A DNA stretch of 64,000 nt from Alphaproteobacteria bacterium (GCA_965199265.1 CBDAQV010000001.1:316180-380179); one strand, 5' to 3'. Shown: positions 1,201 to 60,543, counted from the first letter of the stretch. The notes: generated by a model from the sequence alone, not told the origin. Program-made: numbers and translations.

Positions 1201-1339
1201 ATCGGTTTCCGTTCAGCTGGGGTCACGTCATCCTTCGCGAAAGGGGAGGATTTCCCTATAGGATAAAGGCAGGTTATACAGGAGATCCTCGGGTCAAGCC
1301 CCAGGATGACGGTGACTGAAATTCTAAGTTTAGTTTAGT

Positions 1340-4204: not shown

Positions 4205-4765
4205 GTGAGCGACCCCGCGACAAACCCCACGGTCTGGCACGGCACCACCATCTTATCCGTCCGCAAGCACGGCAGGGTCGTGGTCATCGGCGACGGGCAG
4301 GTCACGCTCGGCAATACCGTGGTCAAGGCTAACGCGCGCAAGGTGCGGCGCGTGGGCGGTCCGACGGCGAACGTGATCGGCGGGTTCGCCGGCGCGACCG
4401 CCGACGCCTTCACCCTGTTCGAGCGGCTGGAGACCAAGCTGGAGAAGCACCCCGGCCAGTTGACCCGGGCCTGCGTCGAGCTGGCCAAGGACTGGCGCAC
4501 CGACCGCTACCTGCGCCGGCTGGAGGCGATGATGATCGTCGCCGACAAGGACGTGTCCCTGACGCTGACCGGCACCGGCGACGTGCTGGAGCCTGAGGAC
4601 CAGCTGATCGGCATCGGCTCGGGCGGCTCGTTCGCCCTCGCCGCCGCCCGCGCGCTGATCGACCGCGACGACATGGACAGCGAAGCCATCGCAAGGCGGG
4701 CCATGGAGATCGCCGCGGGAATTTGCATCTACACGAATAACAACTTCACGATCGAAACGCTGTGA
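4205..4765 (+). CDS. hslV: ATP-dependent protease subunit HslV
   Basis: …[31 protein letters not shown]… carries the Thr active site after HGTT. A GTG at 4205 is the likely start; the ORF also runs in-frame from 4148. Confidence 0.9.
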
Positions 4766-6078
4766 CCGCCTTCTCCCCTCGCGAGATCGTTTCCGAACTT
4801 GACCGCTTTATCGTCGGCCAGACCGACGCCAAGCGCGCCGTCGCCATCGCGCTGCGCAACCGCTGGCGCCGCCAGCAACTGCCCGATGCGCTGCGCGACG
4901 AGGTGCTGCCAAAGAACATCCTGATGATCGGCCCGACCGGCGTCGGCAAGACCGAGATCGCGCGCCGCCTTGCGCGGCTGGCGCAGGCGCCGTTCCTGAA
5001 GGTGGAGGCGACCAAGTTCACCGAGGTCGGCTATGTCGGGCGCGACGTCGACTCGATCGCCCGCGACCTGCTGGACATCGCGATGGCCATGACGCGCGAG
5101 AAGCTGCGCAAGGACGTGGCGGCCAAAGCCGAGCTTGCGGCGGAGGAACGGGTGCTGAACGCGCTGGTTGGCGACAACGCCAGCGACGGCACGCGCCAGG
5201 CCTTTCGCAAAAAGCTGCGCGACGGCGAGCTGAACGACAAGGAGATCGAGATCGAGGTCGCCGATACAGGTGGTAGCGGGGGAATGCCGATGTTCGACGT
5301 GCCGGGCATGCCGGGCGCGCAGATGGGCATGCTCAACCTTGGCGACATGCTGGGCAAGGCGATGGGCGGGCGCACCAGGACGCGCCACCTGACCGTCGCG
5401 CAGTCCTACGAAGTGCTGATGATCGAGGAGTCGGACAAGCTGGTCGACAACGAACGCGTCGTGCGCGAGGCGATCGAGGCGGTGGAGCAGAACGGCATCG
5501 TCTTCCTCGACGAAATCGATAAGATCGCGGGGCGGTCGGAGTACAAGGGCGGCGGCGATGTCAGCCGCGAGGGCGTGCAGCGCGACCTGCTGCCGCTGAT
5601 CGAAGGCACGACGGTGCAGACCAAGCACGGCCCGGTCAGGACCGATCACATCCTGTTCATCGCCTCGGGCGCGTTCCACATGGCAAAGCCCTCGGACCTG
5701 CTGCCCGAGCTGCAGGGCCGCCTGCCGATCCGCGTCGAGCTGAAGCCGCTGGTCGAGGCCGACTTCAAGCGCATCCTGCTCGAACCCGAGGCCAGCCTCA
5801 TCAAGCAATACATCGCGCTGCTGAAGACCGAGGGCGTGGACCTCGTCTTCACCGACGATTCCATCGACGCGCTGGCGCGATTGTCGGTCGAGATCAACGG
5901 CAGCGTCGAGAACATCGGCGCCCGCCGCCTGCATACCGTGCTGGAACGCCTGCTGGAGGAGATCAGCTTCGCCGCCGCCGACCAGTCCGGCCAGACGATC
6001 ACCATCGACGGCAATCTGGTTCAGGAACGCATCGGATCTCTGGCGAAGGACACGGATCTCAGCAAGTTCATCCTGTAA
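4762..6078 (+). CDS. hslU: ATP-dependent protease ATPase subunit HslU
   Basis: Walker [19 protein letters not shown] is present and the 438-aa protein matches HslU over its full length. The GTG start overlaps the hslV stop. Confidence 0.95.
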
Positions 6079-6147
6079 AAGGGAATCGCAACCTGTGCGG
6101 CCCGGAAGGCAGTCGACAACATAGTGTCGTAATATTTTAAAGTTACA

Positions 6148-6190
6148 AACGCCTCCCCCGCAAAATATTCTGCGGGGGAGGCGTTTTCAC
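6148..6190 (+). terminator. Rho-independent terminator of hslU
   Basis: A perfect 15-bp stem aacgcctcccccgca / tgcgggggaggcgtt with loop aaatattc is followed by a T-run. Confidence 0.75.
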
Positions 6191-6224
6191 GCTTGCATTA
6201 GAGATTTGAGATTGCATAAATGAA

Positions 6225-6265
6225 AACGCCGCTCGGGAACGGTTGGAGCCAACCCGAGCGGCGTT
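6225..6265. terminator. Second, bidirectional hairpin
   Basis: A perfect 13-bp stem aacgccgctcggg / cccgagcggcgtt has T-runs on both strands. It lies just upstream of the ATG at 6291. Confidence 0.55.
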
Positions 6266-6290
6266 TTGCAACTCCTATCACGAGGCTATC

Positions 6291-7586
6291 ATGATTGAGC
6301 ACGTTAAACCTACGGCACGAATACCAGCAGTTCAAGGGTCGTTTGGGCCACGTCTTTTGTCGTACACCACACAACTCCCGGCGGGGTCTCTTGAAACGAT
6401 CGTTGGCCACGATCCCAGATCGAAACAATGGAAGCGATTGCCCGATGACATAGCTAATATATATGAACACTTGCAGCGTGCGACAACTAAGCAGCGGCTC
6501 GATTCAATTATTCGCTACATACGCTACCGCTTCATGGAGCGTTCAATCGTTGTTGGTGCTTTTCCTGCAATTTCTATTGCCGTCCAAAACAGTACGCCGT
6601 TTGAGCCATATAGTTCTATTTCAGACAGTGGAGTTGGTGTTTTACAATTCGACCTTTCGCGCCGCAATCTTAGGATCGTAGTTGACGGTCTTGGTAGAGC
6701 TTCGGCTAGCCTAGAATTGGTGGAACTCGCTGAATCAGATGACTTAATGCCAGATGCTAAGGTAGCGCTTCAAAGCCTTTTGAAGGATTTTTCTCTGCCA
6801 ACCGTATTTTATATGCCTGCTCCGGGAACGCCTCCTCTCAGCCTTAGAGAAATGCAGCAGCTATTTCATGATTTCAATTTTAAGGTCACTGCAGTACCGG
6901 CTCGTATTGCTATAGCTCTCGACCATTCAGACCTCTATATTGGGCTTGCTAATCGAATAGGTGAGTCAAACCCAATCCAAGTCCATGGCGGTATGGAAGT
7001 TAAAGCAGCCTCATTGGGCAAGAAGTCGACTGCAATCGTCGTCCAGCAAAATCTAGTGAGATTTGTCCGGGCGGCTACTGAGGGGGAACGATTTATAGAA
7101 GGTACATCCAACAGCGACTTGAAGGAGCCGAATCTCACGGATGAAACTCGGGAAGCGTTTGAGGAGGGAATTATAAAGTTTTTGGATGCGTTTTCTGCGA
7201 GTATGGGGCCGGAGAAATTCAAAGATCGTGAAGGTCTCCATTTGACGGCGCCTGGATGGGGTTCTCTCGGATTGATTTATCACGATCTGGCCGAACGACT
7301 GAAGGTTCCTGATGTCCCGTCAGCCGCAGCCAAGATCGGTAAGCTGAATTGGACGCGTTCTGCTGATATGTGGAAGAATATCGTTCGTGAGCGTGATGAC
7401 AAGGAAGGTAATAGGGTACTTGGTCTCGCAGCAGGCGGAGCCCAGAACCGCCGTTATCTTACAAACGCTGTCCGACACTATCTTGGTTTGGATACTCTTT
7501 TGAAAGAAAAAGGTTTCTCAGATGATAAGGAACCTGACGAGTTAGTTTATTCGCCCGCTGCGAAAAGCGTTGATGAGGAGAACTAA
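6291..7586 (+). CDS. Divergent DGQHR-domain (DndB-like, ParB/Srx-fold) protein with DGLGR in place of DGQHR
   Basis: The N-terminal …AVQGSFGPRLLSYTTQLPAGSLETIV… resembles the DGQHR-family N-motif. RIVVDGLGRASA sits at the DGQHR position. Downstream QQLFHDFNFKVTAVPARIAIALD resembles the family's LFxDxN motif. The locus is low-GC, and an RBS gagg lies 5 nt before the ATG at 6291; the ORF track starts at 6243, inside the hairpin. Confidence 0.55.
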   Translation: MIEHVKPTARIPAVQGSFGPRLLSYTTQLPAGSLETIVGHDPRSKQWKRLPDDIANIYEHLQRATTKQRLDSIIRYIRYRFMERSIVVGAFPAISIAVQNSTPFEPYSSISDSGVGVLQFDLSRRNLRIVVDGLGRASASLELVELAESDDLMPDAKVALQSLLKDFSLPTVFYMPAPGTPPLSLREMQQLFHDFNFKVTAVPARIAIALDHSDLYIGLANRIGESNPIQVHGGMEVKAASLGKKSTAIVVQQNLVRFVRAATEGERFIEGTSNSDLKEPNLTDETREAFEEGIIKFLDAFSASMGPEKFKDREGLHLTAPGWGSLGLIYHDLAERLKVPDVPSAAAKIGKLNWTRSADMWKNIVRERDDKEGNRVLGLAAGGAQNRRYLTNAVRHYLGLDTLLKEKGFSDDKEPDELVYSPAAKSVDEEN

Positions 7587-7588
7587 TT

Positions 7589-7813
7589 ATGAAAGGAGGT
7601 TCATTTCACCGCTCTCGGTGCAGGGCTTTAACACCTTCGGATGCAGCCTTGATCAAAGGAATGCTGTCCAGAGGTGATCTGCAGAGCAATATAGCGGCAT
7701 TCTTTGGGGTAAACGGAGGACGCATTTCGGAAATCAATACGGGAAGGCGCTATTCGTCGATTCAGCCAGTTTACGAAGAATTACCTCCTCCTGGTCCGTA
7801 CAAGGTCCACTAA
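7589..7813 (+). CDS. Small helix-turn-helix (HTH) DNA-binding protein (Hin/resolvase- or IS630-type HTH pattern)
   Basis: LTPSDAALIKGMLSRGDLQSNIAAFFGVNGGRISEINTGRRY fits the L-x6-I-x6-G-x5-IA-x2-FGV-x4-I HTH pattern. The ATG lies 2 nt after the stop of the preceding gene, with aaggagg upstream. Confidence 0.5.
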   Translation: MKGGSFHRSRCRALTPSDAALIKGMLSRGDLQSNIAAFFGVNGGRISEINTGRRYSSIQPVYEELPPPGPYKVH

Positions 7814-7920
7814 CTACCACCGGGTATCCCAGGTTTGCCTAAGCAGCCTGGGATATTCTCTGATTATTAATGATATGATGGTCACCTTACTTATTCTGTA
7901 ACGCAAGATTTAAGGTCATA

Positions 7921-9366: not shown

Positions 9367-9412
9367 AGTCAAACCGCCGTTCCGGTGCGGGGCATCCCAT
9401 GCGGGGCATCCC

Positions 9413-9598
9413 ATGCGGGGGCATTCCCGGCCCGATCCGGACCCCGCTCCAGGTCAGCGGCGGGCCCAGCCTGGAGAAGCTGAGGCAGTTCGGCGGCCAG
9501 ACCTCGATCGACCGCGCCAGCCGGCGGAACTCGCCTCGATCTGCGTCCAGCTGGCCGCCGACGGTGCCAGCTATGCCACGGGGAAGGTGTATTGAAGG
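9413..9598 (+). pseudogene. Remnant of the 3' end of a short-chain dehydrogenase gene
   Basis: The C-terminal …ELASICVQLAADGASYATGKVY* looks like an SDR tail, but there is no room for a full gene between the AKR stop and the next gene. Confidence 0.3.
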
Positions 9599-10302: not shown

Positions 10303-10641
10303 ATGAAACTTCCTCTTTGCAGCAGAACCAGATCCATGCTGATCCTTGCCGGTGCCGTCGCGGCGCTATGCGGGGTGGGCTGTGTCCCCGTTGCCTCGCA
10401 AGGCTATTACCCGCCCGGTGCTTACGCGCCGGGGGTCGCCGCTTACCCTTATCCCGATTACCCATGGTACTACGGTCCTGAAGTCGATATCTACGGCGGC
10501 TACGGACGCGGCGGTTACGGCGGGTATCGCGGTGGTGGCGGATACCGCGGCGGCGGCGGATATCGCGGCGGCGGCGGGTACCGTGGCGGCGGCTTTCGCG
10601 GCGGCGGTGGTGGCCATGGCGGAGGCGGTGGCCATCGCTAA
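10303..10641 (+). CDS. Secreted glycine/tyrosine-rich repeat protein (GGYRGGG repeats)
   Basis: A signal peptide MKLPLCSRTRSMLILAGAVAALCGVGC is followed by a proline/tyrosine-rich region and then GGYGGYRGGGGYRGGGGYRGGGGYRGGGFRGGGGGHGGGGGHR. Confidence 0.6.
   Translation: MKLPLCSRTRSMLILAGAVAALCGVGCVPVASQGYYPPGAYAPGVAAYPYPDYPWYYGPEVDIYGGYGRGGYGGYRGGGGYRGGGGYRGGGGYRGGGFRGGGGGHGGGGGHR
10500..10640 (+). repeat. Tandem 15-bp coding repeat (ggc ggc gga tac cgc-like units)
   Basis: Direct repeats encode the GGYRG units of the glycine-rich protein. Confidence 0.7.
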
Positions 10642-16328: not shown

Positions 16329-16420
16329 CATTGCGCATTTTTCGATGGGTAAGTACGAAAAAACTTTCATGCCGGCGCGATCGGTGGTTTAATGTGACCA
16401 AATCGTGTCGGGGGACTTCG

Positions 16421-16585
16421 ATGAACAATGATCGTAACGAGATAGTCAACGATCTGAGGCTTAGAGAAGCCGCGGAAGCTATGAGCAAGCTTTATAGCGA
16501 AAAAGGTTCGGCTGGCTACAAAGCTTTGATAAAAGTTGTTTCCACACCTGCTAACGGCAGTGGTTCCAGAAACTTCGATTTGTGA
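16421..16585 (+). CDS. Small hypothetical protein (54 aa) in an AT-rich pocket
   Basis: MNNDRNEIVNDLRLREAAEAMSKLYSEKGSAGYKALIKV… is preceded by an RBS gggggac. Confidence 0.35.
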   Translation: MNNDRNEIVNDLRLREAAEAMSKLYSEKGSAGYKALIKVVSTPANGSGSRNFDL

Positions 16586-16599
16586 TTTTCCAGCCTGTA

Positions 16600-16637
16600 A
16601 AAAAAAGGGCGGCCTCTTCAGGCCGCCCTTTTTTTGT
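16600..16637. terminator. Bidirectional rho-independent terminator
   Basis: aaaaaaaa gggcggcc tcttca ggccgccc tttttttg. Confidence 0.8.
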
Positions 16638-16645
16638 GGTTGTAG

Positions 16646-16861
16646 TCAGACGCGGCTGATCGAACCGCGTTTGTCGGCAGAGTCGTTCTTGGAATCGCGC
16701 AGAGCATCCTTCATCCCGCCCATCGCATTCTGGGCCTTGCCGGTTTCACGCATTGCGGCGCCTTCAGTTTTGAGCTTCACGTCACCCGTGAGTTTCCCTG
16801 CCGCTTCACGAAGATTGCCTTCAGCCTGGCGGAACGCACCGTTTACCCTATCCTTGTCCAT
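16646..16861 (-). CDS. CsbD-family stress-response protein
   Basis: MDKDRVNGAFRQAEGNLREAAGKLTGDVKLKTEG… is canonical CsbD. An RBS ggag precedes the start. Confidence 0.8.
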   Translation of the reverse strand: MDKDRVNGAFRQAEGNLREAAGKLTGDVKLKTEGAAMRETGKAQNAMGGMKDALRDSKNDSADKRGSISRV

Positions 16862-16940
16862 GAAAATCTCCTTTAAGTACATATTATACAACCCCAAATA
16901 CGCCCGAATTGTTCCCGGCAGCAGACCTGGCAAGCTTGAC

Positions 16941-21525: not shown

Positions 21526-21922
21526 CTTTTGGACCGACAGCTTACTCGTCATCCCGAACTCGTTTAGCGACTCATGGGACAGCCGACGCCCTGTTTACAA
21601 CTCGACGAGTTTTGTTCGCAAAAATAGCGAAAGCCGAAGAATGGGTCCTGATCCACGCTGCTTCGCGGCTGTCAGGATGACAATTGTGTTCTAAGCTGGC
21701 CACCAGTGGCGAAAGCACTCATCTCGCTTAGGAGAAAGCCGAGCCACTCGACGTAACCATCCGTCCATCTTGCAACCGCTTCTCGCTGGACGCGGCAAGA
21801 TCGCATAGCTGTGCCCGAACTGTCAGGGCTCCCCCGGTTGTATTTACGTTTTGCTAACGAATCGCTTGACGAAATCCTGACATTTGTTCAAGTTTCAAAC
21901 TCATTCCCCCTGTGAGAAACGG

Positions 21923-22498
21923 ATGGCCGATAACCGTACTCTGGCAATGCAGTTCCGGGGAGCGACCGAGGCGAACTCCACGCCTCAGGTCCGAACGGTC
22001 ATGAAGCGAAGCCTGCATCCGTTGATTGTTGCCCATGTCTACGGGCGGTTCGTCAGCGGGTACTCGATGGAGGGTGACTCCACGATGCCCGCTCACGCCG
22101 GGGCCGTGCTCGTTCGCAGTTCGGCTCCGGCCTTTCAGCTCGGCCAGTTCAGGCGCGCAGGCGGCGTCGTTCTTGACATCGGTAATGACGATTATCTGAA
22201 ACCCAGCCAATTCCTGGTCAGGGAAGCCTATCTTGGCAAGGCCAGCGAAGAGCAGCTTTGCCGACTGGACGAGGGCAGGCGGCTTGGGCTCGATCTCGTC
22301 TCGGCGCTGCCGCAGGCGCAAGGGTCGGACGAGGAGAGTTTTCGAAAAATCAAGGCAAGAATCGAGGCGCCCCTTGCCCTCGAACACGCGCCGCCGATGA
22401 TTCAAAAAACGTACCCGGCGCTCGGCTGGATTCCTCCCTGCTTGGCGGCAGGCCCAAGGCCGGCTCGTCAAACATGGCTCTTACAAACAGTTGAATGA
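21923..22498 (+). CDS. Hypothetical protein with weak S24 (LexA/UmuD-like) peptidase-like motifs
   Basis: …RFVSGYSMEGDSTMPAHAGAVLVRS…GGVVLDIGNDDYLKPSQ… resembles the UmuD/LexA Ser-Lys dyad region (SG[DM]SM … K) by eye. The start MADNR at 21923 follows gagaaacgg. Confidence 0.45.
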   Translation: MADNRTLAMQFRGATEANSTPQVRTVMKRSLHPLIVAHVYGRFVSGYSMEGDSTMPAHAGAVLVRSSAPAFQLGQFRRAGGVVLDIGNDDYLKPSQFLVREAYLGKASEEQLCRLDEGRRLGLDLVSALPQAQGSDEESFRKIKARIEAPLALEHAPPMIQKTYPALGWIPPCLAAGPRPARQTWLLQTVE

Positions 22499-25956: not shown

Positions 25957-26012
25957 GGTGTGTTGCCTGGTGTCATTCCCGTCTCTCGAGGGATGACACT
26001 AGGTACGTAGCT

Positions 26013-31324: not shown

Positions 31325-31409
31325 CGCGGGGCCGTTTGGTATGGTGAAGGGTTGAATATATAGCACTGTCATTGCGTGCACAGCACGGAATACGTCGCCG
31401 TAACGACAA

Positions 31410-32030
31410 CTATGATCCGGTGGGCCACGCCTTCATGGCAGCCTCGACCGTGGCCAGCAGCGAAGCGCGCGTCGCGCCGTCTCGCGCCAGCACCGATAGG
31501 CCCTGGATCAGCGCGATCACCAGCCCCGAGAGCGCGCCGGCCTGGGTCTGGGCGGGCAGTACCTTGTCCGCGATGTCGCGCTCGATCCGTACTTTCAGCA
31601 GGGCTTCGATCCCGCCCCGGATCGAGGCGACTTCCTGCCGGACGTCTGCCGATCCCGCCGATCCGCTAGCCGTCGCGCTTGCCAGCAGGCAACCCGGCGG
31701 CGTCGACTCTCCCGTGAACGCGATTGCGGCGGCACGCAGCATACCGTGTGCCGCTTCGTATGATGTCGCGGCGACGTCGATGGTGCGCGCCATGGCGTCG
31801 CGCTCGCCCGCGTAGCGCTGAACCGCTGCCAGGAACAGCTGTTTCTTGTCGCCGAACGCGGCGTACAGGCTGGGAGCGCTTATGTTCATCGCGGCGGTCA
31901 GGTCGCTGATCGACGTAGTCTCGTAGCCGTAACGCCAGAAAGTCAGCATCGCGCGCTGGAGGACGGCGTCCTTGTCGAAGGAGAGCGGACGGCCGGTTCG
32001 ACGCCTCGCCACCGGTTCATGAACTTCCAT
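31410..32030 (-). CDS. TetR-family transcriptional regulator
   Basis: The N-terminal HTH reads …FDKDAVLQRAMLTFWRYGYETTSISDLTAAMNISAPSLYAAFGDK…. Confidence 0.8.
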   Translation of the reverse strand: MEVHEPVARRRTGRPLSFDKDAVLQRAMLTFWRYGYETTSISDLTAAMNISAPSLYAAFGDKKQLFLAAVQRYAGERDAMARTIDVAATSYEAAHGMLRAAAIAFTGESTPPGCLLASATASGSAGSADVRQEVASIRGGIEALLKVRIERDIADKVLPAQTQAGALSGLVIALIQGLSVLARDGATRASLLATVEAAMKAWPTGS

Positions 32031-32107
32031 AACGATCGCTCCGAAACAGGTTGCCCAGTGTTCTGAAATAACATATCCGTATCGAACACTACAGAAGGTC
32101 AAAATCA

Positions 32108-33184
32108 ATGTCGCTTACCAATTTTCGCACGCTCGGCCGCTCGGGGCTGGTCGTCAGCCCTTTGGCCCTCGGAACGATGACCTTCGGGCCTGGCGGCTGG
32201 GGCGCGGACGAGGCGACATCGCGCGCGGTCTTCGATGCCTACCGCGGCGCGGGCGGCAATTTCGTGGATACCGCCGATATCTATACGAGCGGCACGAGCG
32301 AGGAATTCGTTGGCCGGTTCATCAAGGACAGCAGGTCGCGCGACGATGTCGTCCTGGCGACGAAGTTCGCGTTCAACGGTTCGTCAAGCCCGCTCGCGGC
32401 AACACAGGGCGGCGGCGGCAACCCGAACGCGGGCGGCGCCGGGGCGAAGAACATTCACCGTGCGCTCGATGCCTCGCTGAAGCGGCTCGGAACCGAGTAC
32501 ATCGACCTGTACTGGATGCACATCTGGGACGGCGTCACGCCGGTCGAGGAGATCGTGCAGACGCTGGGCGACCTCGTCCGCGCGGGCAAGATCCGGTACT
32601 ACGCCCTGTCTGACATCCCGGCATGGCTGGCGATGAAAGCCGCCACGATCGCCTCCGAGCGGCGCATCCCGGGTCCGGTCGCGATGCAGGTAGAGTACTC
32701 GCTGGTCGCGCGCGACGTGGAGGGCGAGCACTTTCCGGCGGCGCGGGAGGCGGGCATGGGCGTGCTGCCGTGGAGCCCGCTCGCGGGTGGCTTCCTCACG
32801 GGCAAGTACAAGCGCGAGGACACGGGCAACACCGGCCGCCTCAGCGGCGCGAACCCGTTCGGGAACAGCAAGTTCACCGACCGGAACTGGAGCATCCTCG
32901 ACACGCTGAAGGAGATCGCGGGAGAAGCCGGGCGTTCCGCCGCGCAGGTGGCGCTGGCCTGGGCCATGGCACGCCCGGGCGTCACCTCGACGATCATCGG
33001 GGCAAGGACGGTGCAGCAGCTCGAAAGCAACATCGCGGCGACCGACATCCGGCTGAGCGAGAAGCAGATGACGCGCCTGAACGAGGCCAGCGCCCCAGCA
33101 CTGGGGTTCAGCGCGGCACTGACGATGCCGATGATCCGCCGCATGGTCTTTGGCGGCAACGAGGTGACCGGCTGGGGCGAGTAG
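32108..33184 (+). CDS. Aldo/keto reductase (divergent from TetR)
   Basis: …LGRSGLVVSPLALGTMTFG…DTADIYT…IDLYWMH… are AKR blocks. Confidence 0.9.
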   Translation: MSLTNFRTLGRSGLVVSPLALGTMTFGPGGWGADEATSRAVFDAYRGAGGNFVDTADIYTSGTSEEFVGRFIKDSRSRDDVVLATKFAFNGSSSPLAATQGGGGNPNAGGAGAKNIHRALDASLKRLGTEYIDLYWMHIWDGVTPVEEIVQTLGDLVRAGKIRYYALSDIPAWLAMKAATIASERRIPGPVAMQVEYSLVARDVEGEHFPAAREAGMGVLPWSPLAGGFLTGKYKREDTGNTGRLSGANPFGNSKFTDRNWSILDTLKEIAGEAGRSAAQVALAWAMARPGVTSTIIGARTVQQLESNIAATDIRLSEKQMTRLNEASAPALGFSAALTMPMIRRMVFGGNEVTGWGE

Positions 33185-33249
33185 ACGGCGGCGTCACACG
33201 GCGGCAGGGCACGCTGGTACGGATTCCGGCCGTGCCGGCCGAAATGGCG

Positions 33250-34321: not shown

Positions 34322-34864
34322 TTATGTGCCAGAGGAAGTTTGGAGGTCGCAAAGGTAACGCTTCACATCGCGGGTTCGGGTGAACCTGTATTTGGCAAGA
34401 TGGGCATAGCGCGGATCGGAAAGCAATCTCGGGTATCGCGCGCGATTCTTGCCGTAGCTTTTCACGAACCATAGCAGAATCGACTCGCGGCTGAGAAACG
34501 TCTTGTGGAAGGACTCCCGGTTGCCCGCCCACAGCTCCTCGCGCCGGAACGCGCGCCGCAAAGTCCGGCGCAGCAGCCGGGCGAACGTAATGGCGGCGGG
34601 AAAGTCCAGCCAGATCAGCGTGTCCGCGCGGTCCCAGATCAGGTCGCGCGCCTTGCTGTAATTGCCGTCCACCACCCAAGCGCCATCTTCCAGCGCGGCG
34701 GCGACGCGGGCGCGGAACAGCTCGGTTGTGGTCTCCGTCCAGTTCGCCTCCCAGTGCAGCGCGTCGAGTTCAACGTGAGGCACATGCAGGATCGCGGAAA
34801 TCCACCGAGCAAGCGTGGACTTGCCTGATCCTGTGGTGCCGATGATGACGATACGGCGTGGCAT
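34322..34864 (-). CDS. P-loop NTPase (adenylate-kinase/topology-modulation-like) inserted between rplT and pheS
   Basis: The Walker A is RIVIIGTTGSGKSTLA. Confidence 0.7.
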   Translation of the reverse strand: MPRRIVIIGTTGSGKSTLARWISAILHVPHVELDALHWEANWTETTTELFRARVAAALEDGAWVVDGNYSKARDLIWDRADTLIWLDFPAAITFARLLRRTLRRAFRREELWAGNRESFHKTFLSRESILLWFVKSYGKNRARYPRLLSDPRYAHLAKYRFTRTRDVKRYLCDLQTSSGT

Positions 34865-34870
34865 GGAGGC

Positions 34871-34895
34871 AAAAAGGGGGCTTGCGCCCCCTCCT
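34871..34895 (-). terminator. Rho-independent terminator after rplT
   Basis: A stem gggggc-ttgc-gccccc has an A-run on the + strand, which is a U-run on the - strand. Confidence 0.65.
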
Positions 34896-34916
34896 GTCAA
34901 TAATATCCGGGTTGAA

Positions 34917-36670: not shown

Positions 36671-36904
36671 GTTCTAGCAGGTTCGGACGGCAGGAGCAAC
36701 GCCGCCGCCGTTAGCGCAGGGCCATCGCTTGAAGTACCTTCAACTCTGACAGATGTTTGACCTGACGCCACTGTATTTGCGTCATCCCGTGCGCAGCACG
36801 GAATCCATAGCGACAGTGCCGCGTCGGAGGTATGGATCTCGGCTGGCACGGCCAGAATAACGGGCTGGCTTTTCTCTGCAAAGAATTCCTTGCGTAAATG
36901 TCGG

Positions 36905-36959: not shown

Positions 36960-37886
36960 TCAGCGCGACTTCTTGAACAGCTTGGTCGCGATCTCGAACA
37001 TTTCCTCCGGCGCGTATTCCGGAGTGAAGGCCGTCGCGTTGCCGGTCAGGTTGGCGATCTTGGCGCCGTCGGGCGCGCCCTCGACCACTTCCAGCTCGCC
37101 TGGCGGGTCGCCCGGCAACGCTTGCTCGCCGTTGCCCCAGATACCCGCCATCTCCTTGTACGTGTCGCCCTGGCTGTTGGTGTACAGGAAGCGGTGCTTG
37201 CCCGCCTGCAGGTACTTGTCGCACTCGGGGATCTTGGACAGGTCGATGTTCGGCACCGGCAGCATCTTTTCGATGTTGACGCCCGTCAGCTTCTTGAGCG
37301 CCAGCGCGTAGGCGTGGGCGTGGACCGAGCCGCGCACCAGCAGGTACGCACACACTTCGCGGCCCGTCGGCCCACTCAGCGTCTGATAGGTGCGCAGCTT
37401 GTGGATGCGCGCGCCGCATTCGAGGTGGAAGTTGAACAGCGTGTCCATGATGAGGTTGCCCGTGCTGGTCACGAACGTGCCGTTCCAGGGGATGCCGTTG
37501 CTGTCCACCGGCATCGCGCCGCCGCCGTTCGAGATGAACGACGCCGCCGAGCGGATGTCCACCATGTCGGCGAAAGGCGAGTCGGAGATATCCGCGTCGC
37601 CTTCCTCGTTCGCCGGATCGTCCGGGCCGTTCGCCAGCATGGCGACCCCGTTCGACACCAGTTCGACGTGGCCGACTTCCTCGGCGGTGATCGAGGCGAC
37701 GATGCTGTAGAAGGGCCGCAGCTTCGCCTTGGAGCGGAAGTTGAAGCTCTGGTACATGTAGTTGTTCAGCGTGGACATTTCGCCGTACTTGCCGCCCAGC
37801 AGCTCCTGCAAGGCCGCGGCCTCGTTCGGGTCCTGTTTGGTCGGCTCGGGGATGGCGGTCAGCAGCTGGTCTAGGCGCAGGAACAT
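36960..37886 (-). CDS. Manganese catalase (pseudocatalase) family protein
   Basis: MFLRLDQLL…[22 protein letters not shown]…AEEVGHVEL… is the ferritin-like Mn-catalase signature. Confidence 0.85.
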
Positions 37887-38016
37887 CGGGGTAGCCTCGG
37901 TTTGGTTTCGGGGTGGTAAGCCGCCCGGCGACGTTACGTTCCTATTCACCGTTCGCATTTGTTCTAAGTGCCGCGCCGCCCTTTGTCAGTCCTGCGTTCC
38001 CGACTATATAAAACCC

Positions 38017-50621: not shown

Positions 50622-51298
50622 ATGCGAATGCTCGTGGTGGAGGACGATCCGAGGCTGGGGCCGCTCGTCGCGGGCAACCTGTCGCGCAGCGATTTCGTGG
50701 TCGATCTTGCGAACACGCTGGAGGACGCCGAGGCGTACCTCAGCACTACCCACTATTCATTGCTTCTGCTCGACCTCCATCTGCCCGACGGCGACGGTTT
50801 GCGCCTGTTTGCCCGGCGCGGCCGCAGCGGGTTCCCCGCACCATTGTGGTGACGGGAGCCGACGGCGTTGCCGATCGGGTTCGCGGGCTGGACGCCGGCG
50901 CGGACGATTACATCGCAAAACCGTTCGCTCATGATGAGCTGATGGCGCGCATCCGCGCCGTGCTGCGGCGGCCGGGGGCCATGCGCGGTTCCGTGCTGTC
51001 TGCCGGCGACGTTGACTTCGACGTCGCCACCAGAGTGGTAACGGCGGGCGGCGTGGTGCTCTTCCTGCCGCGGCGCGAGCTGGTCATCCTTGAGTCGCTC
51101 ATGCGTTCCGCCGGCTGCGTGGTGATGCGCGAAAGTCTCGAGGAAGCGGTCTACGCCTATGGCGAGGAACCCTTGTCCAACGCGACCGAAGCCAATATCT
51201 CCCGCTTGCGCAAGCGCCTGAGGCAGGCAGGCAGCCGGACGGAAATCCAGGTCGTGCGCGGGCTGGGATACCGGCTTGCCGTCGAAAAGGATGCTTGA
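50622..51298 (+). CDS. OmpR-family response regulator, interrupted by a -1 frameshift in a C-run near 50837-50843
   Basis: The receiver [13 protein letters not shown]…[12 protein letters not shown] ends at a stop at 50852. The rest ([28 protein letters not shown]… plus the winged HTH) continues in another frame through 51298. Confidence 0.7.
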
Positions 51299-51303
51299 GG
51301 GCG

Positions 51304-54186
51304 ATGTCGCTTGCCCGAAAACTCGTCTTTTCCCTCGCGCCCTTCTACGTGCTGTCGCTCGGGCTGGCGGCGCTGCTGCAGTTCCGGCTGCACGCGCCAG
51401 CGTTCCTATCCGTGGCGGTGACGCTCGTTCCCGTCGTATCGCTGCCCGCCATCGTGCGACGCGTGCTGCACCCGTTGAGCGAAGCGGCCAGCCTGCTTAG
51501 GGAAGAGAGGGCAGGGAGCATCGCCGGCGTCCCGAGGGAAATCGCGCCGTTCCTTGCCGCGCTGAGCATCGAACGCGAACGCACGGCCGCGATCCGTACG
51601 CGGGAAAAGGGGTATTTCGACAGCCTCGCGCACGAGTTCCGTGGCTGCCTCGGTATCCTGCAGGCACGGGTGGACCTGCTGTTCCGGGACGAGAAAAATG
51701 CCGAGTTCAGCGCCGACGTCGCTCGGCTGACCCGGCTTGTCAGCCAGCTGCTGCTTCGCGCTCGGCTTCGCGTGCGCAGCCTCGAGCTTGCCGAGCAGGA
51801 TCTTTCGCAGATCGTGCGCGGCGTGCTCCTAGAAATGGCGCCGATCGCCTTCGACGAGGGGAAATCGATCGGCTGCGATCTTCCGGAGGCGCCGGTCATC
51901 GCTCTGGCAAACCTCCCTGTCCTCCAGGACGGGCTGCGCAACCTGATCCTGAACGCAATCCAGCATACGCCTGCCGGAACGGAGGTTTCTGTCACGCTGA
52001 CCAGCGGCGGCGCGATTACGGTGCGCGATCACGGTCCGGGCATTCCCGAGATTTACCACGAAGAAGTTTTTCAGCCATTCTGGAAACTGCGGAACCAGAA
52101 CCGCAACGGCGCCGGCCTCGGCCTCACGATCGTGAGGGAAACAGCATTACTCCATAACGGTCGGGCCGCCGTTTCGACGCACGAGCAGAACGGGGCTGTG
52201 TTTTCCCTTGTCATTCCTGTCATAGGCAAGGCTGAGGATGACCGCCCGACTCCGCGTCAGCCTGTTTCGGGTTTCTGGAAACGCAAGGCGGCCCGCGCGG
52301 CGGTTGATTTTTCCGCTATCGTCAATTTTTCAGACGACGCAATATTCACCACCGACGCCCTCGGGAACATCACCAGCTGGAACGGGGCCGCCGAACGTAT
52401 TTTCGGGTACACCGCCTCGGACATGACCGGCAGGTATGCGCCGACGCTCCTTTCGAAAGATCGTGTCAGAGACAGGGATCTTATCCGCGAACGGATCGTG
52501 CAAGGGCTGGAGATCGAGCGTTACGACACCATCCTGCAGCACAGGGACGGCAGCACCGTTGCCGTGTCCCTCAGTGTTTCGCCGGTGTTCAATCACGATG
52601 GGGTTGTCATCGGCAGCACCTCCATCGCCCGAGATGTGCGTGAGCGCAAGCAATCGCAAAAAGCGTTGCAGGAGAAGCTGCATCTGCTTTCGACCATTAC
52701 CGACAACGCCGCCGAGGCGATGTTCATGTCCGATGCCGATAACCGGATCACGTTCATGAACCGTGCCGCCGAACATCTTTGCGGCTGGACCTTCGCCGAG
52801 ATCAAGGGCCGGTGCCTGCACGACGCGATTCATTACAGGTATCCGGATGGCAGCGCATTCCCGCGCGAGAAATGTCCCTTGCTCGGCATATACCGTACCC
52901 TGCAGCCGATTCGGGAGCTCGACGATGTCCTGGTGCATCGCGATGGCAGCCTGATCGACGTCGCCTACTCGAGCGCACCCATCGTTGTCGGCGGGGTCGT
53001 CACCGGGTCGGTGCTGGTCGTCCACGATATCCGGGATCGCAAGAAGGCGGAAGCGACCCTGCAGCAGGCGCAGAAGATGCGCGCCATCGGCGACCTGACC
53101 GGCGGCATGGCCCATGACTTCAACAACGTGCTTGCCATCATCATCGCCAACCTCGACGCGTTGCTGGAGGAAAAAACCGGCTCCGCCGATGCCGCGGAAC
53201 TGGCATCCAATGCGCTGCAGGCGGCGATCAGCGGCTCGGAGCTCACCCGGCGGCTGCTTGCCTTTGCGCGCCGGCAGTCGCTGCGGCCCGAGCCGATCGC
53301 GCTCAATGCCCTGATCGAGGCGACGGTGCGGCTTTTAAGGCGGACGCTCGGCCAGGAAATCGAAATCGAGCTTGCGTTGTCGCCCGCGCTCGGCACGATC
53401 GTCGCCGATCCGGCGCAGCTCGAGGCGACCCTGACCAACCTTGCCGCCAACGCGCGCGACGCGATGCCCGCAGGCGGCCGGTTGGCGATCAGGACCCGTA
53501 ACGAAACTCTGGATGAAAGCTACGCCGCCGCGCACCTCGACATCGTGCCGGGCGCGTACGTCGTGATGGAGGTCAGCGATACCGGCGCAGGCATGCCGCC
53601 TGAAGTGATGAGCCAGATTTTCGAACCGTTCTTTTCGACCAAGGACAGCCAGGGCGGCACAGGGCTGGGCCTGTCGATGGTGTTCGGCTTCATCAAACAG
53701 TCCGGCGGCCATGTCGCGGTTTCGAGCATCGTCGGCCAGGGCAGCTGCTTTCGCCTCTATTTCCCGCTCGCCGGGGTTGAAGCAAAGCCGTCGTCCCTGC
53801 ACGCCGCGACAAGCCCTGTCTACGGCAAGGGGCAAACGGTCCTTGCGGTCGAGGACAGCACTGCGCTGCGCCTTATCCTGATTCGCCACCTGAAGGACCT
53901 TGGTTATCGCACGCTTGAAGCCGCCGACGCCGCGGCCGCGCTCGGGATTCTCGAGCAGCAGCCGGTCGATCTGCTGTTTACCGACGTTGTGATGCCGGGG
54001 ATGAGCGGCTTCGACCTGGTCGGGATCGTCCGGCGGCGCTGGCCAGCAACCCGGATTGTCGTGACGTCGGGTTTTCCCGAGCTGAAGGTCAGCGACGCGG
54101 CTCCAGGCCGTGGGAACGTTAGTCTGGTCGTCAAGCCTTACCGCAAGGACGAGCTTTCGCGCGCCCTTGCCGACGCCTTGGGCTGA
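51304..54186 (+). CDS. Hybrid sensor histidine kinase with two HisKA-HATPase cores, two PAS domains and a C-terminal receiver
   Basis: Core 1 has SLAHEFRGCLG and …GLGLTIV. PAS x2 follow. Core 2 has GGMAHDFNNVL and …GTGLGLSMV. The receiver reads VLAVEDSTALR…DLLFTDVVMPGMSG. Confidence 0.85.
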   Translation: MSLARKLVFSLAPFYVLSLGLAALLQFRLHAPAFLSVAVTLVPVVSLPAIVRRVLHPLSEAASLLREERAGSIAGVPREIAPFLAALSIERERTAAIRTREKGYFDSLAHEFRGCLGILQARVDLLFRDEKNAEFSADVARLTRLVSQLLLRARLRVRSLELAEQDLSQIVRGVLLEMAPIAFDEGKSIGCDLPEAPVIALANLPVLQDGLRNLILNAIQHTPAGTEVSVTLTSGGAITVRDHGPGIPEIYHEEVFQPFWKLRNQNRNGAGLGLTIVRETALLHNGRAAVSTHEQNGAVFSLVIPVIGKAEDDRPTPRQPVSGFWKRKAARAAVDFSAIVNFSDDAIFTTDALGNITSWNGAAERIFGYTASDMTGRYAPTLLSKDRVRDRDLIRERIVQGLEIERYDTILQHRDGSTVAVSLSVSPVFNHDGVVIGSTSIARDVRERKQSQKALQEKLHLLSTITDNAAEAMFMSDADNRITFMNRAAEHLCGWTFAEIKGRCLHDAIHYRYPDGSAFPREKCPLLGIYRTLQPIRELDDVLVHRDGSLIDVAYSSAPIVVGGVVTGSVLVVHDIRDRKKAEATLQQAQKMRAIGDLTGGMAHDFNNVLAIIIANLDALLEEKTGSADAAELASNALQAAISGSELTRRLLAFARRQSLRPEPIALNALIEATVRLLRRTLGQEIEIELALSPALGTIVADPAQLEATLTNLAANARDAMPAGGRLAIRTRNETLDESYAAAHLDIVPGAYVVMEVSDTGAGMPPEVMSQIFEPFFSTKDSQGGTGLGLSMVFGFIKQSGGHVAVSSIVGQGSCFRLYFPLAGVEAKPSSLHAATSPVYGKGQTVLAVEDSTALRLILIRHLKDLGYRTLEAADAAAALGILEQQPVDLLFTDVVMPGMSGFDLVGIVRRRWPATRIVVTSGFPELKVSDAAPGRGNVSLVVKPYRKDELSRALADALG

Positions 54187-55425: not shown

Positions 55426-56154
55426 ATGAGCTACACGGTTGCCGCCTTTTACCGTTTCGTGACGCTCGCGGACCCGTCGACGCTGCGCGACGACCTCTGT
55501 TCGCTGTTCGCCGCAGACCGCTTGTGCGGCACGTTGCTGATCGCCGGCGAGGGCGTGAACGGCACACTCGCCGGATCGGCTCAAACCATTGATAGGTTAC
55601 TGACCGTACTTTCCGATCGAGTCGGACTCGACCGGGCCGGGGTGAAGTTTTCCAGGGCCGACCGTGCGCCGTTCGGGCGTCTGAAATTCAAGCTGAAACG
55701 CGAGATCCTTACCTTCAACGAACCTGGTCTCGATCCGGCTAGGCCAGGCCACTATGTACCACCTGCGGACTGGAACGCGCTGATCGCCGATCCGGACATC
55801 CTGCTCCTCGATACCAGGAACCGGTACGAGATCGATCTAGGCACCTTCGCCGGCGCGATCGATCCCGGCATCGAGACATTCAGCCAGTTCGCTCGCTACG
55901 TCCGCGAAACCCTTGACCCGGGGCGGCACCGCAAGGTGGCGATGTTCTGCACCGGCGGCATCCGCTGCGAGAAAGCCTCCGCCTTCATGCGCCGGGAAGG
56001 CTTTGCCGAAGTCTACCACCTCAAGGGCGGGATCCTGAAATACCTCGAGGAAGTGCCGCGCGAGGAAAGCCGCTGGCATGGCGAATGCTTTGTCTTCGAC
56101 GAGCGTGGCTCGCTGGGGCATGGGATTTTGCAGCGCTGTGACGTCTTCGATTGA
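55426..56154 (+). CDS. Rhodanese-domain protein of the UPF0176/YceA (TrhO) family
   Basis: …AAFYRFVTLADPSTLRDDLCSLF… and …MFCTGGIRCEKASAFM… are present. Confidence 0.7.
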   Translation: MSYTVAAFYRFVTLADPSTLRDDLCSLFAADRLCGTLLIAGEGVNGTLAGSAQTIDRLLTVLSDRVGLDRAGVKFSRADRAPFGRLKFKLKREILTFNEPGLDPARPGHYVPPADWNALIADPDILLLDTRNRYEIDLGTFAGAIDPGIETFSQFARYVRETLDPGRHRKVAMFCTGGIRCEKASAFMRREGFAEVYHLKGGILKYLEEVPREESRWHGECFVFDERGSLGHGILQRCDVFD

Positions 56155-56272
56155 AGTAATTATACCGTCATCCTCGGCCAAAGCCGGGGATCTTTCCCCA
56201 AGGCAGCACTGTCCTGATAGAGATCCTCCGTTTTCGCTAAGGATGACAGGTCGTACTGTGATGAAGCTGACG

Positions 56273-58346: not shown

Positions 58347-59438
58347 ATGATCCAAGCCATGATGTCCGATCCTGATCAGTCCGAGGCGCAACTTGGTCGT
58401 CCCATACACAGCAGGCCTTGGCAACGGCTCCTCGGGAGAATCGCAATTGGCACCGTAGCCACGTTGGGCCTCGCGGAAATGACGCTTTTTGGCGCGGTCG
58501 GCTATATTATACATTGTGACAACACCCATCCCGTGAAAGCCGCCGATTCATTTGCGAATGTGAATGGCTATCAGGCGACGTCGCATGGTGTACTCAGTTC
58601 TACTCGCCAAATGGACACAGGAGCCTTTTTCACCGAGTTCGATGCAGAAGCGCGCCGCGACGGTGGACTCGATCGGGCATTTGCAGCGGCAAAGGACAAA
58701 GCCGATCCGATTTCGCTCCGGCTTGCCGCGGCGCAGGCTGTGATCGAAGTGACAAGCGGCATCGAGGACATGGGCGTGAAGGTGCAGGCGGTGAACTCAT
58801 TCGTCAGCCGCACGATTGGCTATGATCAGGAGAAAGCGAATTCGTCCTGGAAAGTCGATCATTCGACATGGCTGCAAACTCCCGATGAAACCTTGAGTAA
58901 AGGCAAGGGAGTGTGCGGGGATGTCGCGCTCTTGAAAATGGCCATGTTGCTCCGGGTTGGTTTCAGGCCGGAGAATGTTGGAATTCTGGAGATTTCAGCC
59001 GATAAGGATGGAACAAGCGATCTGCATGTCGTGGCTCTGGTCCGGATCGACAAGCGTAACTATATTCTCAACAACGACAAAAATCCCAATTTCGACCCTG
59101 CCGACCAGTTGCTTCATCAACTGCACCTTACACCTGCGGGGTGGTACACGGGAGGTATGGAAAAAAAAGATACCGCGTACCCGTTGGCTATAGTGGGCTT
59201 GCGCGGAAAAACCCTTCTGAGCGAAAACAAGACGGCCAGGGAGGATACCGATCCAAATGGATGGTATCTAAGCCGCAGTTTGGCCGAGGATATGGATCGG
59301 CTCGGTCGAGTCTGGTATGTCAGCGACATCCTACAATACAACGTGCAAAATCTCGCTGCCGGTAAGCCGCTGCTGAAGCTGCAGACCATGCCGAAATCAG
59401 CCGCTACTCCTCCCCCTTCGCGGCACGCCGGTAGCTGA
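58347..59438 (+). CDS. Transglutaminase-like cysteine-protease-fold protein (membrane-anchored)
   Basis: Candidate Cys/His/Asp triad residues are read by eye: GKGVCGDVALL (Cys), DLHVVALV (His), and NNDKNP (Asp). An N-terminal TM helix is present. The GC content is locally lower. Confidence 0.65.
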   Translation: MIQAMMSDPDQSEAQLGRPIHSRPWQRLLGRIAIGTVATLGLAEMTLFGAVGYIIHCDNTHPVKAADSFANVNGYQATSHGVLSSTRQMDTGAFFTEFDAEARRDGGLDRAFAAAKDKADPISLRLAAAQAVIEVTSGIEDMGVKVQAVNSFVSRTIGYDQEKANSSWKVDHSTWLQTPDETLSKGKGVCGDVALLKMAMLLRVGFRPENVGILEISADKDGTSDLHVVALVRIDKRNYILNNDKNPNFDPADQLLHQLHLTPAGWYTGGMEKKDTAYPLAIVGLRGKTLLSENKTAREDTDPNGWYLSRSLAEDMDRLGRVWYVSDILQYNVQNLAAGKPLLKLQTMPKSAATPPPSRHAGS

Positions 59439-60213
59439 CAATCCCGCGCTTGGAGGCGCGCAGGAAGTCGATCAGGCGCATCGCGGGTTCGAAGTCGCCG
59501 TGCGCCTGGAACGCCGCCTCGATCTTCTCCTCGAACTTTCCAGGTCTGACGAAGATCGCCTTGAACACCGTGTTCAGGCGGGCGATGTCCTCGGCGGAAA
59601 AGCCGCCGCGCTCGAGCCCCACGCGGTTGATGGTAACCAGCCGCGCGCGGTCGCCCTGGACGATGCAGAAAGGCGGCACGTCCTGGCTGACCATCGAGCC
59701 CGCGCCGAGGAAGGCGTGGTCTCCGACGCGGCAGAACTGGTGGATGCCGGACAGGCCGCCGAAGATCACGTGGTTGCCGACCGTCGAGTGGCCGCCGAGG
59801 GCCGCTGAGTTGGTGATCCAGTTGTGGTTTCCGATAACGCAGTCATGCGCGACGTGGCAGCACGCCATCAGCAGGTTGTTCGAGCCCAGCCGCGTCACGC
59901 CGCCGAACTGTTCGAGGCCTGGCTGTACTGTCACGTACTCGCGCAGGATGTTGTTGTCGCCGATCTCCAGCCGCGAGGTGCCACCGAGGAACTTCAGGTC
60001 CTGCGGCTGCGCCCCGACGGAGGCGAACTGATAGATCTGGTTGCCCTCGCCCAGCCAGGTGTCGCCTTCTAGCACCACGTGGCTGCCGATCCGGTTGTTC
60101 GGACCCATCCGCACCTGCGGTCCGATTACGGAGTAAGGCCCTACGCTCGAGCCCGCGCCTATGATCGCGCTGTCGTGAACGATGGCTGTCGGGTGTATCC
60201 CTTCAAACCACAT
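59404..60213 (-). CDS. lpxA: Acyl-ACP--UDP-N-acetylglucosamine O-acyltransferase
   Basis: Left-handed beta-helix hexapeptide repeats and …QFASVGAQPQDLK…HVAHDC… match LpxA over its full length. Confidence 0.9.
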   Translation of the reverse strand: MWFEGIHPTAIVHDSAIIGAGSSVGPYSVIGPQVRMGPNNRIGSHVVLEGDTWLGEGNQIYQFASVGAQPQDLKFLGGTSRLEIGDNNILREYVTVQPGLEQFGGVTRLGSNNLLMACCHVAHDCVIGNHNWITNSAALGGHSTVGNHVIFGGLSGIHQFCRVGDHAFLGAGSMVSQDVPPFCIVQGDRARLVTINRVGLERGGFSAEDIARLNTVFKAIFVRPGKFEEKIEAAFQAHGDFEPAMRLIDFLRASKRGIVSYRRAAKGEE

Positions 60214-60543
60214 ATATCCCCCTGTTGGCTGTGCTGGACATGGAGGCGGCTGCCCCGCGCCCGTGATAGCGGGTCGGCAGCCTGGCGCTTCCTCACATAC
60301 TGTTACCGAATGTTGCACGGGATCGGAACCCCTTGGCTGAACAACGCAGGCGCTCTTTCCAGCCTGTCAGGGGCAATCTCTTAAAGAACGAATATGACCG
60401 TCATTCCGGCCGGCATGGCTGAATCCGTACCTCCGGTACAGCGGCGCGGTCGGTATGGATTCCGTGCTGCGCAGGGGATGACATCGGACTGCGAGGATCG
60501 CTGGGGAAAGTTGGGAGTTCTTCAAGAGGTCAACCCTGGTAAG

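Follow-up and report, generated by a model that had tools for sequence, protein, structure and literature searches.

Repetitive extragenic palindromic (REP) elements carrying an unpaired CGTC tag form a superfamily, CGTC-1 to CGTC-4, that was described by Di Nocera, De Gregorio and Rocco (2013, BMC Genomics 14:522; PMC3733652). The published units begin with CGTC, or in many cases TGTC, followed by stems of 8-9 bp that almost invariably have complementary A/T residues at their first two positions and enclose loops of 4-5 nt, with loop-length exceptions in some species, and they end in a short unpaired tail, mostly CCA (PMC3733652). Dimers with the tags on the outside predominate, their spacers of 20-100 bp often having complementary ends, and tens to thousands of copies are dispersed per genome, mostly in alphaproteobacteria and near 3' ends, between convergent or co-directional open reading frames (ORFs) (PMC3733652). 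CGTC-1 includes Neisseria dRS3 and Rickettsia RPE-6, CGTC-4 corresponds to RPE-4, and in no carrier species surveyed was a REP-associated tyrosine transposase (RAYT) or another IS200-type gene flanked by CGTC units (PMC3733652). Nf prophages integrate at dRS3, for which a part in gene insertions and rearrangements has also been proposed (PMC3898611). Here, we analysed 64,000 nt of the genome of an alphaproteobacterium (GCA_965199265.1, CBDAQV010000001.1:316180-380179; hereafter the window, meaning this whole stretch) and characterised a family of short tagged hairpins dispersed in its intergenic DNA. We conclude, with a probability of about 0.88, that these are CGTC-tagged REP elements, probably non-autonomous and spread through recognition of their folded single-stranded form. 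The family is therefore one already described, and an uncultured alphaproteobacterial lineage, which lay outside the 2013 survey, is added to its hosts.

The window has a G+C content of ~64%. Its ClpA is 93% identical to that of a sister metagenome-assembled genome (MAG; CBDAQZ01 / ERZ25067493), and the nearest named organism by the same protein is Roseiterribacter gracilis (83%, Rhodospirillales). A preliminary description of the window had reported a dispersed family with GTCATYCC…GGRATGAC termini, and all the strings it quoted were recovered at, or a few bases off, their coordinates. The repeats proved real, but the 8-nt termini alone do not define them: GTCATYCC occurs 7 times in the window against 4.0 expected, and 12 of 100 shuffled sequences reached 7. 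This 8-mer, being at chance level, was therefore dropped as a diagnostic, and searching the literature for the 8-mers yielded nothing beyond primer noise. The copies align well beyond their termini. The 26-mer GTCATCCCGTGCGCAGCACGGAATCC occurs twice in the window at no more than one mismatch against 0 expected, and positions 36771-36875 (+) can be aligned over their full length with 60390-60492 (-). We also confirmed the near-identity in reverse orientation previously reported for the copy at 36781 and the right arm of the copy at 60397-60494, as 36781-36822 and 60441-60482 are 90% complementary over 42 nt.

To define the repeat unit, we scanned for GTCAT-anchored hairpins and then aligned 17 units found in the window and in the sister MAG. 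The true unit is about 30 nt long and consists of an unpaired (C/T)GTC tag, a hairpin and a short tail, which is CCA or CCG in an ATTCC subtype and CTY in an ATCCT subtype. The stem begins with A-T and T-A pairs (ATYCC…GGRAT), and its interior is variable yet base-paired. All 17 units agree at G2, T3, A5 and T6 and at the closing A and T, C4 is found in at least 90% of them (one unit has a CGTT tag), and pairs 5-32 (A-U) and 6-31 (U-A) are unchanged throughout. Across the outer six pairs, 91% of positions are paired compared to 82% in shuffles, none of 500 shuffles reached 91%, and sliding the partner by a single column lowered pairing to 62% or less. Stem interiors that differ between copies and are still paired include GTGC/GCAC, GGTGC/GCACC, GGCGC/GCGCC, GGATGGGC/GCCCATCC and CGC/GCG. 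These compensatory changes demonstrate that the hairpin is under selection.

Two covariance models were then used to identify units: R1, trained partly on units of the window, and R2, built from units of the sister MAG only as an independent check. R1 recovered 10 units in the window at E<0.01, eight as dimers (at 1226, 36780, 56166 and 60399) and two as singletons (31367 and 33217), the unit at 33217-33249 being one that was outside the training set. R2 retrieved four of the window units, 36780-36810 (E 4e-7), 60453-60483 (E 1e-6), 33217-33249 (E 5e-5; 4.6e-5 before rounding) and 60399-60430 (E 2e-4), and gave only a marginal score to 31367 (E 0.16). A pattern for the ATCCT subtype had 4 matches against 0 expected, a count that is partly circular as the pattern was derived from the same four units; this subtype is also backed by related units in a further relative, L014. 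Four of the six sites first proposed (36781, 60397, 56166 and ~31352) are thus family members, whereas 21546-21690 is unsupported and 25967-25996 is ambiguous; the dimer 1226-1311 and the unit 33217-33249 had not been listed. As previously stated for the copies in general, every significant unit is intergenic.

These units share most hallmarks of the CGTC-tagged REP elements. The tag is CGTC or TGTC in 8 of the 10 significant window units, the others being CGCC (33249) and CGTT (36862), and in 8/8 units of the sister genome. Tails are CCA or CCG in ATTCC-subtype units, with the exception of the ACG of unit 31367, and in 7/8 sister units, the remaining one having CAA; the ATCCT-subtype tails are CTC, CTT or TTC. 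Both the tag and the A-T/T-A start of the stem agree with the published units, as do the CCA-like tails. Eight of the 10 significant units are arranged in four head-to-head dimers with the tags outside and spacers of 31-34 nt, which fall within the published 20-100 bp range and have complementary ends (CCATAC…GTATGG). The 4/4 elements of the sister genome and the L014 element are likewise head-to-head dimers. In the fold that RNAalifold gives for the dimer, two small hairpins accompany an outer and a central stem. Further points of agreement are heterodimers of two unit types, an alphaproteobacterial host, a location near 3' ends between convergent or co-directional genes, and no adjacent transposase.

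Individual classes can also be compared. A unit of the sister genome, GTCATTCCCGCGAAGGCGGGAATC (L001 24-43), fits the Neisseria dRS3 pattern ATTCCC-N8-GGGAAT exactly, a pattern with no match in the window even when one mismatch was allowed. The same sister unit would translate to VIPAKAGI, the peptide given for a Rickettsia CGTC-1 insert. RPEs often lie in frame inside genes; by comparison, the significant units of the window are all intergenic, with one doubtful in-frame candidate at 52210-52242. This candidate, GTCATTCC…GAGGATGAC (+, encoding VIPVIGKAEDD), is a palindrome tagged on both sides that was found by pattern match and reaches 9.1 bits in R1. The gene around it (51295-54186) encodes a hybrid histidine kinase, and the palindrome falls in the linker that precedes the PAS domains; it could be what is left of an intragenic REP, or it could have arisen by chance.

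The six significant sites were positioned relative to genes identified by Pfam scans of individual ORFs. The first is a head-to-head dimer of the ATCCT…AGGAT-CTY subtype at 1226-1311 (units 1226-1257 (+) and 1279-1311 (-), spacer 33 nt), supported by the GTCAT hairpin scan, by R1 (E 5e-4 and 4e-3) and by the subtype pattern; it lies between the convergent genes for an Ysc84-like protein (340-1200, +) and hisD (1387-2700, -), 25 nt past the former and 75 nt from the stop codon of the latter. A single A-type unit, TGTC-ATTGCGTGC-ACA-GCACGGAAT, at 31367-31397 (+; R1 E 6e-4) follows a TetR stop codon by 12 nt and precedes the pheT ATG (31324) by 42 nt. The single B-type unit at 33217-33249 (-), CGCC-ATTTCGGCCG-GCA-CGGCCGGAAT-CCGTACC, scores 20.1 bits in R1 (E 0.004) and 25.9 bits in R2, folds at -8.6 kcal/mol, is immediately adjacent to the stop codon of pheS and comes 32 nt after that of an aldo-keto-reductase gene. 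At 36780-36862, an A unit (36780-36810, +) and a degenerate B unit (36830-36862, -, tag CGTT) form a head-to-head heterodimer with a 31-nt spacer, 97 nt downstream of a Mn-catalase gene (36960-37958, -) and within a window-specific segment between tspO and uvrB. The second ATCCT-subtype dimer is at 56166-56248 (head-to-head units 56166-56197 (+) and 56217-56248 (-), spacer 31 nt; R1 E 9e-6 and 6e-6; fold z-score -2.7), between a convergent UPF0176/rhodanese gene (ending at 56154) and a TPM-domain gene (stop at 56273), 11 nt past the first and 24 nt from the stop codon of the second. Finally, a head-to-head heterodimer at 60399-60483 (B unit 60399-60430 (+), A unit 60453-60483 (-), spacer 34 nt) lies 60 nt downstream of an autotransporter gene (60544-63081, -) and 80 nt upstream of an lpxA-like gene (59404-60318, -).

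The elements had also been labelled MITE-like, and the reading of the family as classical miniature inverted-repeat transposable elements (MITEs), that is, deletion derivatives of an insertion sequence bounded by GTCATYCC/GGRATGAC, moved by a DDE transposase and flanked by target-site duplications, was weighed against these observations. Elements of 83-86 bp with inverted termini, dispersed in intergenic DNA, are what such a reading predicts. However, no direct repeat or target-site duplication was found beside any window or relative copy inspected, the conserved part is the tag and the foot of the hairpin, and single units stand alone at 31367 and 33217. The interiors of MITE copies are usually common to all of them; here they differ from copy to copy. 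Furthermore, none of the 50 window ORFs scanned with Pfam contained a transposase domain, including Y1_Tnp of the IS200/IS605 type, or an integrase domain, no transposase was present in the gene tables of the related loci L011-L018, and no related insertion sequence was found. The MITE label was thus not retained, and we regard this origin as very improbable.

Location suggested a further explanation, in which the hairpins would be immobile RNA structures that evolved locally, such as 3' untranslated region (3'-UTR) stabilisers, processing sites or terminators, and became alike through convergent selection. All significant sites are downstream of genes, at 0-97 nt from the nearest stop codon; flanking genes are convergent at 1226, 33217 and 56166 and co-directional at 31367, 36780 and 60399, and none of the six sites lies between divergent genes. 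Against a role as terminators, there is no T-run or U-tract behind the hairpins, no REP unit was among the terminator-like sites of the regions scanned (25-38 kb and 21.3-22.7 kb), and the elements had no Rfam match, whether gathering scores or permissive E-values were applied. Unrelated loci carry 42-nt copies that are nearly identical, and the same A/B heterodimer is present at three sites, which points to copying and not to convergence; moreover, the subtype found in the pheS-pheT spacer differs between related genomes. We therefore consider locally evolved structures quite unlikely as the source of the family.

A strand-specific role is indicated by units found on phages, the other observation in favour of an RNA-level function. 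The pattern GTCATTCC-N9-16-GGAATCCAT had 160 matches in viral contigs, 138 of which have at least 3 further nested pairs (~5% expected) and 139 of which have C or T before GTC. These statistics indicate that units in which tag, foot and tail frame an interior that is paired but otherwise free make up a widespread class. In the IMG/VR contigs with many units (L091/L026, which are one contig, L062, L068, L056/L094, L072 and L044), all units of a contig are on one strand (10/10, 12/12, 15/15, 6/6, 4/4 and 8/8). L091 is a bona fide tailed phage whose terminase, portal, HNH and capsid genes run opposite to its 10/10 units, and units are also opposite to the genes in L056 and L072, the other contigs where gene orientation is clear. 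Phage-contig units are singletons between structural genes, not dimers. From this one-strand placement follows a strand-specific role, either in RNA or on one DNA strand.

The spacer between pheS and pheT differed in its elements from one related genome to another. Four states of this orthologous site were observed: it is empty, with a 1-bp gap, in L013; in the sister MAG (L012), it holds a single hairpin with a tag at either side; in L014, a full ATCCT/ATTCT-type dimer is present; and in the window it holds a B-type and an A-type unit, tags outward, around a 1.8-kb cassette. Elements at this site thus undergo turnover, including absence. The cassette (31398-33216), identified by Pfam, consists of a TetR gene (31410-32108, -) and an aldo-keto-reductase gene (32108-33184, +) and separates pheS from pheT, which adjoin in three relatives where the cassette is missing. 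The two bracketing units are of the same types, A and B, as those of the intact heterodimers at 36780 and 60399. In other genomes, the gene pair (84-85% protein identity) has different surroundings and no REP units nearby, and none of its own was found in two other genomic contexts of the same pair. The REP site therefore probably predates the cassette. A clean insertion of the cassette into the spacer of a dimer was not supported, as the tail of the A unit (ACGTCGCC…) is unlike the spacers of intact dimers.

The aldo-keto reductase with its divergent TetR gene was also found, 80-85% identical, in many unrelated Alphaproteobacteria (Sphingomonas, Bradyrhizobium, Lichenicoccus). As its neighbourhood was different each time (including L015 and L016), this two-gene module appears to be horizontally exchanged.

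The preliminary description had noted that the repeats often sit at operon break points, and several of the significant elements coincide with breaks in gene order. Synteny with the sister genome stops just before dimer 56166 and restarts just after dimer 60399; the two dimers bracket a 4.2-kb LemA/TPM/lpxA-like segment in place of which the sister MAG has a different gene. Units 31367/33217 and dimer 36780 are likewise in, or at the edges of, window-specific segments. The 3' end of clpA is a gene-order breakpoint too, but it coincides only with the unsupported candidate at 21547-21689. The association of REP units with gene-order breaks is suggestive only, since both need intergenic DNA and since several differences in gene content have no REP unit. 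By the alignment of the copies beyond the 8-bp ends, the compensatory changes in their hairpins, their placement downstream of genes, their variation at an orthologous site and their coincidence with synteny breaks, the earlier proposal of a REP-like, mobile or recombinogenic repeat family is borne out.

With regard to how the elements spread, CGTC-tagged REP units would be non-autonomous, and they would be both spread and lost via a process that recognises the folded single strand through the foot of the hairpin, the tag and the tail. The enzyme would act in trans and would be encoded outside the window. Once resident, units would serve as structured 3'-UTR hairpins and would be hot spots for the insertion or exchange of DNA.

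A rival reading equates the dimers with REPINs in the strict sense, REP doublets mobilised by a RAYT (an HUH Y1 transposase) that is encoded elsewhere in the genome and would bind the hairpin and cut beside the tag on single-stranded DNA. The geometry is the same, with two inverted hairpins, each with an unpaired conserved 5' tetranucleotide, foldable as one long hairpin. Only the foot of the hairpin and its flanks are conserved while the interior is free to vary, as would be expected if single-stranded DNA were recognised in its folded form. Also in favour, the units of a phage contig are all on one strand. The GTAG-tagged REPs and REPINs of Pseudomonas, E. coli and Stenotrophomonas are similar in these respects and in their high density in 3' intergenic DNA, and single-strand recognition is presumed for them as well. 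They differ by their tag, which is CGTC here and not GTAG. Moreover, no RAYT is known for the CGTC class, the 2013 survey having found no CGTC-flanked RAYT or IS200-type gene in any carrier species (PMC3733652), and neither the window nor the gene tables of L011-L018 contained one. RAYT-driven REPINs in the strict sense thus seem unlikely.

Alternatively, CGTC dimers could be recombination sites at which a dedicated hairpin-recognising enzyme inserts or exchanges cassettes, like attC with IntI or dRS3 with the recombinase of the Nf phage. Three observations fit: the cassette between two outward-tagged units in the pheS-pheT spacer, the 4.2-kb segment between dimers 56166 and 60399 where the sister has a different gene, and the units placed strictly in one orientation on bona fide phage genomes. 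The variable pheS-pheT spacer also parallels the dRS3, intergenic mosaic element and "minimal mobile element" sites of Neisseria. However, the host is a betaproteobacterium there and an alphaproteobacterium here, and the window has neither large repeat arrays, nor a filamentous prophage, nor a Piv-type recombinase. Integron attC sites are also similar: they bound gene cassettes, are recognised in folded single-stranded form and are imperfect palindromes whose ends are conserved and whose interior varies but stays paired, a situation reminiscent of the two units around the TetR/aldo-keto-reductase cassette. In contrast to attC, the core sites RYYYAAC/GTTRRRY are absent, the termini being GTCATYCC/GGRATGAC; no IntI, attI or cassette array is present, and the window cassette is two divergent genes with their own promoter region. 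We regard a role as dedicated recombination sites as unlikely.

Several observations weigh against this assignment or limit it. The published stems of 8-9 bp and loops of 4-5 nt are matched by the ATCCT subtype (1226, 56166) and by sister unit L001 20-49, whereas ATTCC-subtype stems are 9-12 bp with loops of mostly 3 nt (3-4 nt), and the ATCCT-subtype tail is CTY, not CCA; these differences from the published families are modest. R1 yielded a false positive (E 0.0075) in the clpA coding sequence of L017, at the Walker B motif, and R1 E-values near 0.01 are therefore not trusted alone. Window copies contain mismatches and fold weakly as isolated units, at -2 to -8.6 kcal/mol compared to -9 to -13 kcal/mol for the near-perfect hairpins of the sister MAG, so that the window copies look older than those of the sister MAG. 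Copy number is an extrapolation from the window, which has 10 units per 64 kb, and density is uneven in relatives, the 22-kb locus L011 and L013 having no unit at all. We found neither a mobilising enzyme in the window nor a target-site duplication or a footprint of excision at the copies inspected, and mobility is thus argued from presence and absence of units only. The exact 24-nt hairpin is rare in public genomes, occurring only in the sister MAG and in one Chloroflexi MAG; scans for it gave 5 matches in GTDB genomes and 5 in JGI metagenomes, collections neither of which holds the source genome, and a BLAST search of one dimer against plasmids gave no match. Finally, gene-content differences without any REP unit occur nearby, for example at an extra gene (34322-34900) and at the pheT/NMO/CMAS junctions.

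The extra gene at 34322-34900 encodes a P-loop kinase-like protein (AAA_18/SKI) between pheS and rplT and is absent from L012 and L013. L014 has a MazE/PIN pair and another ORF in this slot, again without REP, making it another variable slot of the rpmI-rplT-pheST cluster.

The sister MAG and Chloroflexi bacterium 54-19 (MKTJ01) have in common a 25-nt unit, TGTCATTCCGTGCGCAGCACGGAATC. In the latter, it was found at L002 305-335, L003 3086-3116 and L004 5562-5592, with further diverged units nearby, and a second repeated module, CTCCGGTCCGTTGGACAATGTCAC, is fused to these copies. The 2013 survey does not name Chloroflexi as a phylum with CGTC repeats (PMC3733652).

Two of the sites first proposed were weaker. 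The first-listed copy, after the clpA stop codon (21547-21689, CGTCATCCCGA… / …TCAGGATGACA), was a candidate decayed dimer and is unsupported as a family member: its best unit, 21639-21682 (-), reached 11 bits in R1 (E 1.3), the fold z-score of 21546-21692 was -0.9, and it had no Rfam match and no intrinsic terminator. In three relatives, a canonical intrinsic terminator is found directly after clpA, at the position of this candidate. The second, between convergent SDR and HAD genes at ~25970-25998, is a hairpin tagged on both sides, tGTC-ATTCCCG-TCTCT-CGAGGGAT-GACa, whose membership is ambiguous. The two-sided-tag pattern GTCATYC-N5-25-GRATGAC, to which it belongs (~25972-25997), had 2 matches in the window against 0.01 expected, and the fold z-score of the site is -3.4, but R1 gave it only 10.3 bits (E 2). 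In form it equals the hairpin that the sister genome has between pheS and pheT (L012 11080-11105), and it may be a collapsed dimer.

For these two sites, and less so for the second, chance recurrence of GC-rich palindromes is about an even bet. The chance-level count of the 8-mer, the R1 E-values above 1 and the weak fold z-score of the clpA site (-0.9) are in line with it. Conversely, the two-sided-tag form at 25972 is 200-fold over expectation and recurs in the pheS-pheT spacer of the sister genome, and both ends of 21547-21689 share one deviation, …GGAC in place of …GGAT. The ~970 bp after clpA (21526-22494) contain no Pfam-supported gene, no terminator and no Rfam match. Gene order departs from that of the sister MAG exactly after clpA, although relative L017 shares the downstream PEMT and SDR genes.

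Other features of the window were recorded along the way. A low-GC island at 6079-7920 (0.49 vs ~0.64) contains a DndB-like ORF (6243-7586; PF14072, E 6e-21) just downstream of ORF 4762-6078, probably a horizontally acquired defence-related gene. Two tandem repeats were seen: one of 18 nt at 10496-10628, which with its GGYGGC-type codons resembles a coding repeat rich in glycine, and one of 14 nt, CATGCGGGGCATCC, at 9384-9429. Positions 16527-16643, within the intergenic region 16329-16940, had sub-threshold Rfam matches to suhB/mmgR (27 bits vs a gathering score of 41) and to L20_leader (31 bits vs 59), and may encode an alphaproteobacterial small RNA.

Our results file this repeat under a described class, the CGTC-tagged REPs, for which no mobilising enzyme is known. 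The placement of phage units on one strand, opposite to the genes, is a clue as to whether the class acts through RNA or through single-stranded DNA. In genome annotation, the units explain several otherwise puzzling palindromes, which should not be taken for terminators, small RNAs or MITEs. Furthermore, the four-state pheS-pheT series shows turnover of these repeats and ties them to changes in gene content.

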